Shown here piece by piece: positions 7,466 to 10,905 of a stretch of DNA of 10,905 nt. Position 1 is the first letter of the stretch. Each line of letters begins with the position of its first letter. The DNA lies in IMG/VR virus record IMGVR_UViG_2874951433_000005, one strand, 5' to 3'. The stretch is from a virus (Duplodnaviria > Heunggongvirae > Uroviricota > Caudoviricetes). The notes beneath the pieces were generated by a model. It did not search any database. It saw nothing but the letters and a program-made list of their open reading frames with translations, and was not told the origin of the DNA. The position numbers were made by a program, and so were the translations under genes.

Positions 7466-7542
7466 GCGTTGTTAGCTCAGCCGGACAGAGCAATTGCCTT
7501 CTAAGCAATCGGTCACTGGTTCGAATCCAGTACAGCGCGCCA
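7466..7542 (+). tRNA. tRNA-Arg (anticodon UCU, reads AGA/AGG), argN/argO/argU-like
   Basis: Hand-folded: acceptor GCGTTGT/ACAGCGC, D-arm GCTC...GAGC, anticodon stem ATTGC/GCAAT with loop CTTCTAA, T-arm ACTGGTTCGAATCCAGT, GCCA 3' end. Confidence 0.9.
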
Positions 7543-7652
7543 TATTCATTCTTCCAGATTCCTTCCGGCAGAGCCTTATACTGAAATATACCTGGCTCAG
7601 GATATTGTTGAAAATATTATATATTTGTCAAAAATAAAAGTTCTGTTAAGTA

Positions 7653-8006
7653 TTGATTGAGTATTTGTTATACGGTCTAATGGTTTTTTCAGCATTAAGT
7701 ATTTATCATTCATATGGTGTGGGTAGAGTGAATATTGATGAGGTGTCGGGGTGTTTCATCCTTAGGCAGCGTATTGATATAGTCAATGCAGCACGAGCAA
7801 AGGCCTTCAGCCGTTTGACAGTTTTGTTCTGTACTCCTGATCGTCTTTCGGGAAGAGACGTTATTATTCTGAATAGTGATGCTATACAGAGGGTTTGCGA
7901 TGAGTTCATGGTTGCTAATTCAGAATTATTTGCTCTTGTTCAGGAGTACAACAGAATAGCCAGGACCTGTGGTATGGATGAACTTCGGATTACTCATCTG
8001 GGGTAG
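7653..8006 (+). CDS. Hypothetical protein in the AT-rich cargo region (117 aa from TTG, 108 aa from the first ATG at 7680)
   Basis: Open frame in low-GC DNA with many rare codons (AGG, AGA, ATA, CGA, GGA) and no convincing ribosome-binding site. Unrecognised. Confidence 0.3.
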   Translation: MIEYLLYGLMVFSALSIYHSYGVGRVNIDEVSGCFILRQRIDIVNAARAKAFSRLTVLFCTPDRLSGRDVIILNSDAIQRVCDEFMVANSELFALVQEYNRIARTCGMDELRITHLG

Positions 8007-8398
8007 ATACATATCTGGATTATCACCTGTTACGGTAAAAAGTGATTGCTTACTGTTTTTGTTAATGGCATTGCAGCAGCCGGATAATGTCAGTGCCGGC
8101 TGACGGTGTGCTGGTGGCGGGTGTGGTGGTTGTTGCTTTCCCGTTGCTGAAAAAGAAAACGCCAGACTGTTAGCCGGGTATCAGTTAGCGGGAGAAATTT
8201 TTAAATACTTCACAATTCAGGCGGTTGACTGTTGTCTGGTTTGCGGGGAGTTTGTTAAAAGAAACTGGCATGGTGAATCCCCCTGTGCGGAGGGGCAATC
8301 AGCGAGTAGGTATATGGGATAATCGCGGATTCAGGTGCTGGTACTGAATTCACCGGGATGCACCCGGCACCATGGAATGGCACATAGCGCCACTCTCC

Positions 8399-8425
8399 AG
8401 CCCCTCTCCGGAGGGGCTGTTTATA
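8399..8425 (+). terminator. Perfect 20-bp palindrome AGCCCCTCTCCGGAGGGGCT followed by a T-rich tract; candidate intrinsic terminator
   Basis: 8399-8418 is its own reverse complement, followed by GTTTATATTGATTTTGT. Confidence 0.5.
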
Positions 8426-8453
8426 TTGATTTTGTCAGATGTGAGTAAACTCC

Positions 8454-8789
8454 TTATGGACTTTGTTGTTTTAGTCCATAAGGACATATTTGCAGAGTGC
8501 AACGGTTATTAAAGCATTCATTCAATACGTTATCTGTATTTGTAGGGCATTCCTGGCTGTTTTTGATTAAATTCCAGAATGTTTTATTGAATGGTACTAC
8601 GTTGTAAATGGTTACAGGTAGCACTTTGTTATTGAGCATGATGCCTGTGTGAGTCAGTGTAAATATACTTTCAGGAGGTAAGAAAGCATCCGATTGATAC
8701 CAGATTATTAATTTTATTTTACTCCATATGACTGAAAAAGATATTCCGCATGATGGCTGGATAACTGTATCAATCACAATCCACTTCAT
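8454..8789 (-). CDS. Hypothetical protein in the AT-rich cargo region (111 aa), transcribed against the phage late operon
   Basis: ATG at 8787-8789 on the minus strand, preceded by AAGGAAA. Six Cys, Trp-rich, low GC. Unrecognised. Confidence 0.4.
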
Positions 8790-9048
8790 TTAGTTTCCTT
8801 GTTTATGCCTTGCTGGTGATGTTCTGAAAAGTATAAATGATATTTTTGAATTAAACCATAGAGCAGAATTATTTTTCTGATGTTGTTTATTGTTTATTTA
8901 AATGCAGGGTGGTTTATATCTCGTCTTGTAGTTTATCCATGCATATCTGCTTGATAATCAGGTTTTTATTTAAGGTATGGTTTTGTGTTTTTTCTGTATT
9001 ACATGTCAGGTATTTTAAAGAATTATTTTTCAGATGGTGGAAAGAACC

Positions 9049-9237
9049 ATGGCATTTAAACACTATGATGTTGTCAGGGCGGCGCCGCCGTCAGATCTTG
9101 CGGAAAAGCTGACACATAAACTGAAAGAGGGCTGGCAGCCGTTTGGTAGTCCGGTGGCCATAACCCCTTATACCCTGATGCAGGCGATTGCAGCAGAAGG
9201 TGATGTGGTGGTCAGTGGTGCAACTGAGCCGGAGTGA
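9049..9237 (+). CDS. Small prophage protein (62 aa from the ATG at 9049), of a type found upstream of lysis genes in lambdoid prophages (DUF1737-like, by recollection)
   Basis: MAFKHYDVVRAAPPSDLAEKLTHKLKEGWQPFG... with a GGTGGAAAGA ribosome-binding site. The ORF track starts it 5 codons earlier, at 9034. Confidence 0.55.
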   Translation: MAFKHYDVVRAAPPSDLAEKLTHKLKEGWQPFGSPVAITPYTLMQAIAAEGDVVVSGATEPE

Positions 9238-9398
9238 TACTACGTCATCGTACTGGCCCGGCATTCCAGGCCATAAAAGACAGTCTGGCAGTGGGACTAA
9301 ATGCACTGACGCTGACGGATATTACCAAAAATGCAACGTATGGCGTTGAGATAGAAAGTCTGGTGCTGGAGATAAATGCACCGGCATCATCATAAAAA
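9234..9398 (+). CDS. Small ORF (55 codons, GTG start) overlapping the upstream stop in a GTGA junction
   Basis: GTG at 9234-9236 overlaps the TGA at 9235-9237. Translation: ...[44 protein letters not shown]. There is no ATG and no independent ribosome-binding site. Confidence 0.35.
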
Positions 9399-9479
9399 GT
9401 GAGCCAGTCAAATGGAAGGTATCGTTAAACTCACCGGTAGTGTCAGTGGGTCGTCTGAGACGCTTGCATGAGTTATCAG

Positions 9480-9510
9480 AGCCATCAGTAGTTAACTGGT
9501 GGCTTTTTTA
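9480..9510 (+). terminator. Intrinsic terminator immediately upstream of the holin gene
   Basis: 9-bp stem AGCCATCAG / CTGGTGGCT (one G-U pair) with loop TAGTTAA, followed by TTTTTTATT. Confidence 0.55.
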
Positions 9511-9544
9511 TTGTTGTCAGCTTCCGGATAACGGGAGACGGGGT

Positions 9545-9724
9545 ATGGACCAGATGGAAAAAATCACAACAGGTGTGTCATACACCACGTCAGCGGTGGG
9601 AACGGGCTACTGGTTCCTGCAGTTGCTGGACAGGGTTTCCCCGTCTCAGTGGGCGGCAATAGGCGTGCTGGGAAGTCTGCTGTTTGGGCTGCTGACATAT
9701 CTGACTGAGGTGTACTGGCAATAG
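9545..9724 (+). pseudogene. S21-type pinholin/antiholin gene (dual start M-D-Q-M), 3'-truncated by the IS600-like copy 2 insertion at 9705/9706
   Basis: [53 protein letters not shown] resembles the phage 21 S holin from memory. After ...LTYLT the frame runs into the IS and ends as TEVYWQ-stop, so the charged C-terminal tail is lost. Confidence 0.8.
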
Positions 9725-9748
9725 CGGACACTACCATTTGTTCTTTTT

Positions 9749-10567
9749 TTAAGCAGCTATCTGATGATATTTTTCCCTGAAGGCTGCCGGGGAGATATTC
9801 CCCAGACGAGAGTGACGACGCTGACGATTGTAGAAAATCTCAATGTATTCCCGTATTACTGAGATGGCTTCATCCCGGTTATTAAAACGATAGTGGCTCA
9901 GGCTCTCATTTTTCAGCGTTCCCCAGAAGCTTTCCATCGGAGCGTTGTCGTAACAGTTACCTTTACGCGACATTGATGTTTTCAGACCAGACTGCTCCTG
10001 TATGACCCGGTAATCGTATGCGCAGTACTGTGAACCTCGATCAGAGTGGTGGATTAGCCCGGCAGGTGGGCGCTGGCTCCTGAGCGCCATAAACAGGGCT
10101 TTACCTGTCAGCTCTTTTGTCATGCGCTCTCCCATGGCGTAGCCGACAATTTCGCACGTATAAACATCTTTGATGCCAGCGAGGTACAACCATCCCTCCT
10201 GTGTGGCAACATACGTCAGGTCCGCCACCCAGACCTGATTTGGTGCTGTAGGAGCGAACGTCTGGTTCAGCAGATTTGGCGCAACTGGCAGATTGTGGTT
10301 CGGGTTCGTAGTCGCTCTGAACTTGCGTTTCTGCTTACAGCGTAGCCTCAGCTCCTTACGAAGACGTGCCAGTCGGTCACGACCAACGATGATGCCATTC
10401 TCTGCCAGCTCCGTCTGGAGCCGCCGGGTTCCATATGTTTCGCGAGTGCGGATATGTGCCACCTTAATCTCCGGTTTTAGCCACTCATCACTTTGTTTTC
10501 TGTCTGAGGGTTCATGCTGTACCCAGTTGTAATAACCGCTCCTGGATACACCAAATACCTGACACAT
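9749..10567 (-). CDS. IS600-like transposase OrfB (272 aa from an internal ATG; normally made as an OrfAB fusion)
   Basis: DDE-type integrase core. Differs from copy 1 at one residue (W versus R in ...SDEWLKPEIK). Confidence 0.9.
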   Translation of the reverse strand: MCQVFGVSRSGYYNWVQHEPSDRKQSDEWLKPEIKVAHIRTRETYGTRRLQTELAENGIIVGRDRLARLRKELRLRCKQKRKFRATTNPNHNLPVAPNLLNQTFAPTAPNQVWVADLTYVATQEGWLYLAGIKDVYTCEIVGYAMGERMTKELTGKALFMALRSQRPPAGLIHHSDRGSQYCAYDYRVIQEQSGLKTSMSRKGNCYDNAPMESFWGTLKNESLSHYRFNNRDEAISVIREYIEIFYNRQRRHSRLGNISPAAFREKYHQIAA

Positions 10568-10602
10568 CGCTTCAATGGGAAATTGTTGTCGCCATTGTTC
10601 GA

Positions 10603-10905
10603 TTAACGCGTATTTTTCAGCGACTCCTGTGCAAAATACGCTGTTGCTTTTTTTAATATATCTCGCTCAAGGCGAGCTTCATTTAACGCCTTACGCAGTT
10701 GCAGAATTTCAGATTCCAGTTCAGCCACCGTGCGGGAACCAGGAGTACCGAGCCCTTTTCTGGCGGCGGTAACCCATTGTCCTAAAGTGCCTTCAGGAAG
10801 GAATAATCGGGAAGCGTCTTCACTGATCGAAAGTTGATTTTCAAGAACCGTTCTGACAGCTTCGGCTTTGAACTCTTTAGAGTAACGTCGGGTTTTTCTG
10901 CTCAT
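10603..10905 (-). CDS. IS600-like transposase OrfA (100 aa) with an intact frameshift window
   Basis: Ends ...DILKKATAYFAQESLKNTR. The minus-strand A-AAA-AAG motif lies at about 10647-10655. Three substitutions relative to copy 1 (Q6R, G30D, S35F). Confidence 0.9.
   Translation of the reverse strand: MSRKTRRYSKEFKAEAVRTVLENQLSISEDASRLFLPEGTLGQWVTAARKGLGTPGSRTVAELESEILQLRKALNEARLERDILKKATAYFAQESLKNTR

Follow-up and report, generated by a model that had tools for sequence, protein, structure and literature searches.

In the Shiga toxin (Stx) phage 933W, the late antiterminator gene Q is followed by terminators, tRNA genes, stx2AB, the small RNA gene STnc100 (75 nt past stx2B), a minus-strand AsxR, nanS-p and the holin gene S. 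Phage JLK-2012 carries in the same slot tciA, which encodes a TerB domain, and tciB, followed again by STnc100. The tciAB pair is also known from phage P1. Here we compare these arrangements, and the iraL locus of the CFT073 potB prophage, with a 10,905-nt stretch of viral DNA (Caudoviricetes; IMG/VR record IMGVR_UViG_2874951433_000005), referred to as the window. Our focus is the slot at positions 7550-9030. An initial annotation had described this slot as AT-rich cargo DNA with two unrecognised open reading frames (ORFs) and a cluster of GC hairpins, and had expected an undescribed accessory function such as a toxin, an anti-phage gene or a regulator.

IraL is an experimentally characterised anti-adaptor of RssB, which raises the level and half-life of sigma-S in logarithmic phase (Hryckowian et al. 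2014, PMC4045071). It is active in unstressed logarithmic phase and binds only RssB's N-terminal domain, whereas IraM binds both domains, and iraL deletion mutants of CFT073 and S. sonnei contain less sigma-S in logarithmic phase (PMC4045071). The gene is enriched in uropathogenic E. coli and Shigella (PMC4045071). IraL levels are elevated in a CFT073 fur mutant, and iraL mRNA increases after a shift to 37 C (PMC7157518, PMC12890032). IraM (YcgW) of K-12, encoded next to prophage e14, belongs to the same family and is an RssB anti-adaptor as well; PMC10844676 describes it as responding to Mg2+ starvation.

The window spans a late-regulatory region from a lambda-like prophage that carries many insertion sequence (IS) elements. 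From left to right, it comprises relBE and hokD-like genes, a split DUF968 gene, rusA, Q, two tRNA genes, the slot, nanS-p remnants and a holin gene cut by an IS element. The best annotated match was the CFT073 potB prophage, with 98.2% identity across window positions 7247-9706 (2.46 kb) and conserved gene order. Alignment to 933W gave four anchors (tRNA block, STnc100, nanS-p start and holin region) in the same order and orientation, with 79-94% DNA identity. The layout of Q, pR'/tR', tRNAs, cargo and holin, initially likened to that of Stx phages, was thus borne out in exact register. Compared with 933W, orf92 and a tciB-like gene take the place of stx2AB, iraL takes that of AsxR, and nanS-p is cut to stubs. 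The slot is indeed AT-rich, with a GC content of 0.392 versus 0.488 for the whole window, though unevenly so: positions 7550-8040 have 0.385 and positions 8431-9030 have 0.32, but the GC-normal core at 8041-8430 reaches 0.51. Taken together, the slot is very likely the accessory-gene region, assembled as a mosaic of catalogued modules, in a lambda-like but defective prophage of the CFT073 potB type, probably from Shigella flexneri. We identified the following features within it:

7728-8006, plus strand: orf92, a small phage protein of phrog_2873; conserved core of the 117-aa ORF 7653-8006, with GTG 7728 as probable start (phrog_2873, substitution rates, homologues)
8042-8173, plus strand: tciB-like DUF3927 small membrane-protein gene, a pseudogene (E8*, TAA at 8063-8065; RefSeq orthologues, phrog_1470)
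8239-8428, plus strand: STnc100-family small RNA gene (RF02076) whose end is formed by an intrinsic terminator (8398-8419 and a T run) (cmscan, terminator scan)
8454-8789, minus strand: iraL coding sequence, 111 aa, putative RssB anti-adaptor stabilising RpoS (CFT073 identity, NCBIfam; function from PMC4045071)
8790-8835, minus strand: iraL 5' untranslated region with start at 8822, and -10-like TATACT at 8835-8830 (published 5'-RACE (rapid amplification of cDNA ends) sequence; -10 read from the sequence)
8836-9033, minus strand: iraL upstream regulatory region, very AT-rich with a GC content of ~0.28 (composition; 98% identical to CFT073)

In this order, the tRNAs are followed by orf92 and the broken tciB-like gene at the stx2AB position, STnc100 with its terminator, iraL, which has a promoter of its own and lies on the other strand, the collapsed nanS-p and the holin. 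Two features of the initial annotation match described families: the minus-strand ORF passes the NCBIfam model of IraM, and the GC hairpins, found at ~8280-8420 as had been noted, belong to an Rfam family. This settles two annotations, the gene labelled "IraM" by RefSeq being assigned to iraL and the hairpins to the STnc100 small RNA.

We assign the minus-strand ORF to iraL, since its coding sequence is identical to that of CFT073 iraL at 336 of 336 nucleotides and at the amino acid level (100%). In addition, the mapped 5' end, the flanking genes and the prophage slot are alike. Its coordinates and its Cys/Trp-rich product with a good ribosome-binding site had been given correctly: the protein contains 5 Cys and 4 Trp, and AAGGAA precedes the ATG. 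It scored 162 bits against NF007393 (IraM; cut-off 121) over residues 1-110, is 62% identical to K-12 IraM over 107 aa and matches the PDB structure 8twd of IraM with E 9e-32. RefSeq labels this gene, or its CFT073 copy, "IraM". But the IraL branch was delimited by at least 95% identity to CFT073 iraL and ~59% to IraM (PMC4045071), and the window gene falls into this branch. A flank or promoter shared between K-12 iraM and iraL was ruled out: their DNA similarity ends at the ends of the coding sequence, and promoters and flanks are unrelated. This agrees with the point made in PMC4045071 that iraM and iraL are regulated differently.

The window contains a single occurrence of the published 5'-RACE sequence ACATCACCAGCAAGGCATAAACAAGGAAAC, on the minus strand from 8822 to 8793, with 30 of 30 positions matching and 0 mismatches. 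The -10-like TATACT lies 7 nt upstream of the start at 8822. Further upstream, the regulatory region is at least 96% conserved among iraL carriers (PMC4045071). When 5426 complete E. coli genomes were searched, iraL plus its promoter was present in 1446 of them.

We propose that iraL is the working part of the slot. Its transcription would start at a sigma-70-type promoter of its own and run counter to the late operon, and IraL would bind the N-terminal receiver domain of RssB. RssB in this complex could not pass sigma-S to ClpXP, and sigma-S would be stabilised in growing cells, as experiments demonstrated for the identical protein of CFT073. Because of its own promoter and opposite direction, iraL should be independent of Q antitermination and could stay active in a prophage in which Q, the tciB-like gene and the holin gene are broken. 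A regulator of the general stress response is perfectly intact here while the late functions of the prophage are dead, which agrees with the published view that iraL is kept because the host profits from it.

iraL and STnc100 converge and are 25 bp apart (8428-8454). Since the terminator hairpin has a T run on the plus strand only, iraL transcripts might run antisense into STnc100, which is speculative. A further hairpin at 8451-8484 overlaps the iraL stop codon and has no T run.

The GC hairpins correspond to a full-length STnc100-family small RNA with a predicted terminator. In the Rfam search (cmscan), the match reached 121.2 bits versus a gathering threshold of 47 and covered model positions 1-206 of 206. 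The terminator at 8398-8419 was the strongest in the region. Nine copies from six loci supported a consensus fold of 34 pairs, 8 of which show compensatory double-sided changes. According to PMC12711010 and PMC12370729, the STnc100 family sits just downstream of stx2B and overlaps the Hfq-binding RNA EcOnc27/sRNA103; for this stx2-linked counterpart, expression as a discrete RNA that binds Hfq is reported, as cited in PMC12711010. The window copy resembles EcOnc27 (sRNA103) of enterohaemorrhagic E. coli, which is related to PasD, in its full-length model match, conserved helices, terminator and position relative to nanS-p. However, it scores below the 933W copy (121 versus 208 bits), and its central variable region is shorter. 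By analogy with EcOnc27, STnc100 in the window would most likely act as an Hfq-binding regulatory RNA.

Across different prophages, a STnc100 copy ends each cargo module in the slot. Besides the window copy at 8239-8428, we located copies in the related loci L011 (3778-3983), L002 (4690-4880), L003 (4165-4358 and 4634-4822), L015 (3666-3838) and L006 (4575-4787, 6547-6742, 6806-7005 and 7067-7256); one prophage of a Shiga toxin-producing E. coli (STEC) thus carries four, three of them in tandem. STnc100 copies may serve as homology linkers for cargo exchange at the slot, a weaker possibility than the one considered below for orf92. Alternatively, STnc100 could be a terminator that travels with each cassette. 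Two candidates antisense to STnc100 were set aside. A 42-aa minus-strand ORF at 8255-8383 had no family matches and overlaps the RNA gene, and it was treated as spurious; the partial "hypothetical protein" pseudogene that the Prokaryotic Genome Annotation Pipeline places on the minus strand, equivalent to 8258-8383, is probably spurious, too.

Directly upstream of STnc100 lies the tciB-like DUF3927 gene, as does the DUF3927/TciB-like ORF of JLK-2012. At the equivalent place, both CFT073 and MS6198 have an intact 43-aa DUF3927 protein listed by RefSeq. The window differs from CFT073 by a G-to-T change that turns codon 8 from GAA into TAA, so the reading frame is not intact, but the C-terminal 28 aa match the TciB-like profile phrog_1470 (E 1.5e-8). 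Compared with JLK-2012, the window lacks a TerB-like tciA, and its tciB-like ORF contains a premature stop.

The remaining module, orf92, belongs to the phage protein family phrog_2873 (E 8.2e-69; residues 10-117 of the 117-aa ORF aligned to profile positions 1-108 of 108), and its distant members connect to phrog_4827. It was found in 1185 of the 5426 complete E. coli genomes, about a fifth. The exact 92-aa and 108-aa versions are recorded from Shigella flexneri, including strain 5a M90T, which makes this species the probable source of the window. A profile search of 1.84 billion representatives returned 22 relatives (representative clusters), none of them named. Among phage genomes, tblastn detected the close family only in mEp460_ev081 and the phrog_4827 branch only as ST64B sb55. 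Four loci representing three other contexts carry homologues, in each case downstream of Q and within a late region of lambda-like type. In L013 and L014 (63% identity), the order is methyltransferase, AraC-like regulator, orf92, TerB-like protein, DUF3927 and holin; in L006 (57% identity), an AraC-like regulator precedes the homologue; and in L012 (41% identity), Q and a tRNA do. Beside the fuller AraC/TerB/DUF3927 cassettes, the window looks like a shortened form of a larger arrangement. In two diverged lineages (L013 4142-6038 and L006 5164-6261), the homologue stands directly downstream of the AraC-family regulator, and in L013 it is followed by the TerB-like (tciA-type) and DUF3927 (tciB-type) genes. 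In STEC1585, the annotation gap at the orf92 homologue spans ~1.6 kb (L006 5889-7475). A 67-aa minus-strand ORF at 7706-7909, which overlaps orf92, had no family matches and was treated as spurious.

One rival reading takes the 117-aa ORF for a product of chance in non-coding, AT-rich DNA; this would account for the missing RefSeq call. It starts with TTG and has no clear Shine-Dalgarno sequence, and RefSeq annotation over orf92 was missing in 11 of the 12 sampled records; in the twelfth (partial, 62% match), it overlaps a "hypothetical protein". Residues 1-25 are weakly conserved, with a ratio of nonsynonymous to synonymous substitution rates (dN/dS) of 0.6 and a predicted local distance difference test score (pLDDT) <50. 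But for residues 26-117, comparison with the STEC prophage copy (57% protein identity) gave a dN/dS of 0.27, and 43 of the 90 differences fell on third codon positions, while the other two forward frames gave ~1 and contain stops. One antisense frame has a similar ratio, but shares wobble positions and contains stops. Distant homologues reach down to 22-41% identity, and among them in-frame proteins of 91-95 aa with 33-41% identity start at the equivalent of V26, for example with MNIDD. The AlphaFold2 model is confident as well (mean pLDDT 88) and predicts an antiparallel hairpin of two helices with a conserved TPDR loop. We therefore consider a chance origin very improbable. The weak N-terminus, the starts of the homologues and the exact 92-aa protein in the NCBI records (WP_001017801.1, hypothetical protein) together point to GTG 7728 as the likely start. 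The ORF at 7653-8006, whose coordinates were confirmed, is thus a real gene, but probably a shorter one than listed, encoding 92 aa. Both ORFs of the slot are conserved.

Nor does the interval appear to consist of decayed stx or nanS-p remains, an origin to which we give hardly any credence. Decay did occur nearby: right after the interval, at 9049-9380, nanS-p survives only as stubs of its N- and C-terminus, and the tciB-like gene and one tRNA are decayed, too. However, tblastn with Stx2A and Stx2B in any frame returned only chance matches (E >0.3; best E 1.5 and 0.35), Pfam toxin domains were not found in the ORFs, and the nanS-p remnants fall just outside 7550-9030. What fills the interval instead is orf92, the tciB-like gene, STnc100, and iraL together with the region of its promoter.

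The expectation that a toxin, an anti-phage gene or a regulator still to be described lies in the slot now applies to orf92 alone, and there we regard it as rather unlikely. orf92 sits exactly where 933W has stx2AB, is under purifying selection and widespread, travels in other prophages beside an AraC-like regulator and the tciA/tciB pair, and had no match in Pfam, NCBIfam or PADLOC. But its protein is already catalogued (phrog_2873, WP_001017801.1), nothing ties it to toxicity or defence, and the model is a simple hairpin of two helices that does not resemble a catalytic fold. The gene points the same way as the late operon, showed no significant independent promoter and may act only in lytic growth. 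Promoter-like sites in the region were at chance level (7 found versus 5.7 expected), and none was assigned to orf92 or STnc100. Searches of the PDB by sequence profile gave nothing below E 0.3 for orf92, and for four ORFs of the slot PADLOC detected no defence system at E up to 0.1. Profile and structure searches with both proteins, proposed initially together with a comparison of related prophages, thus led to iraL (NF007393, 8twd) on the minus strand and to phrog_2873 with generic hairpin matches on the plus strand, and the comparison led to the CFT073 and 933W alignments. What stood is that the slot holds accessory cargo instead of a toxin, including one regulator; what did not stand is the undescribed nature of this cargo, as iraL, STnc100 and the tciB-like gene had been described and orf92 catalogued. 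The slot contents are largely already known, and orf92 is a modest remaining item. We regard orf92 as an authentic accessory protein of the late operon that selection maintains, our best guess from the model being a small protein-binding helical hairpin. As an uncharacterised protein at the stx2AB position, it might even affect the host, for example by modulating a host protein via a coiled-coil hairpin, but we offer this as a tentative idea with a small chance of being right. In the fuller cassettes, orf92 may cooperate with its neighbours, the AraC-like regulator and the pair tciA/tciB. Small, frequent and conserved but mostly lacking annotation, and placed where Stx phages have stx, the gene would be inexpensive to put through phenotype screens.

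Several points weigh against our interpretation of the slot as a mosaic with iraL as its working part. The activity of IraL in this strain is deduced from sequence identity, and rpoS or rssB mutations in the host could make iraL irrelevant. The proposed role of STnc100 is termed hypothetical in PMC12370729. For orf92, fold searches returned generic helical hairpins only, and neither a convincing promoter nor a strong Shine-Dalgarno sequence lies upstream of it; given the truncated Q, the gene may not be expressed in this prophage.

The following features flank the slot:

6324-7145, plus strand: late antiterminator gene Q with nonsense codon Y156*, stop at 6789-6791 (Pfam Antiterm on both halves of the gene; in-frame translation compared with CFT073 Q)
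7226-7253, plus strand: tR'-like intrinsic terminator downstream of Q (terminator scan: hairpin 7226-7245 with a 7-bp stem, plus T run)
7289-7364, plus strand: tRNA with CAU anticodon, ileZ-type tRNA-Ile2 (ARAGORN; Rfam tRNA 72.5 bits)
7365-7465, plus strand: decayed argN-like tRNA remnant between both tRNAs (aligned to the intact middle tRNA-Arg of CFT073 and 933W)
7466-7542, plus strand: tRNA-Arg (UCU) (ARAGORN; Rfam 68 bits)
9034-9395, plus strand: collapsed nanS-p with an N-terminal DUF1737 piece at 9034-9237 and a C-terminal remnant of ~30 aa at 9288-9380 (Pfam DUF1737 E 4e-17; tblastn)
9545-9706, plus strand: class II holin gene, truncated by an IS3-family insertion at 9706-10905 (judged from the CFT073 holin and from the edge of the second IS copy)

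With Q truncated and the holin cut by an IS element, the prophage is dead. Its broken genes are Q (Y156*), the tciB-like gene (E8*) and the holin gene. Relative to the intact 273-aa Q of CFT073, the window Q contains a single stop, and read-through of the late operon should be lost. Compared with CFT073, the window prophage is more decayed, given the nonsense codons in Q and the tciB-like gene, the IS-cut holin and two instead of three recognisable tRNAs.

The tR'-like terminator corresponds in position to terminators annotated upstream of the 933W tRNAs. RefSeq labels the identical CAU tRNA gene in near-identical loci tRNA-Ile. In the argN-like remnant, the anticodon-arm region is replaced, a decayed form common to MS6198, and neither ARAGORN nor Rfam called a tRNA at 7365-7465. 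The proposal that tRNA-Arg (UCU) decodes the AGA/AGG codons of the cargo holds for the plus-strand ORF, where these make up 6 of the 11 Arg codons, but not for the minus-strand ORF, which has a single Arg codon, CGT. In the latter, 6 of 13 Ile codons are ATA, readable by the adjacent tRNA-Ile2. Downstream of the slot, NanS-p of phi296 and 933W matched by tblastn only with residues 1-88 and 610-640. The nanS-p deletion is identical in CFT073 and MS6198 and therefore predates the split of these prophages.

The two IS3-family copies at 1848-3037 and 9706-10905 are inverted and 98.7% identical, and the right-hand one truncates the holin gene. The element is presumably IS600. The two copies could give rise to an inversion or a deletion, and further IS fragments lie at 1-1075. 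The DUF968 (ydfU-like) gene seems to be split into the overlapping ORFs 4890-5627 and 5554-5940, where related prophages have one ORF of ~350 aa. Finally, CFT073 carries an IS200C copy with a STnc490 RNA between Q and the tRNAs (L008 21568-21691), which is absent from the window.

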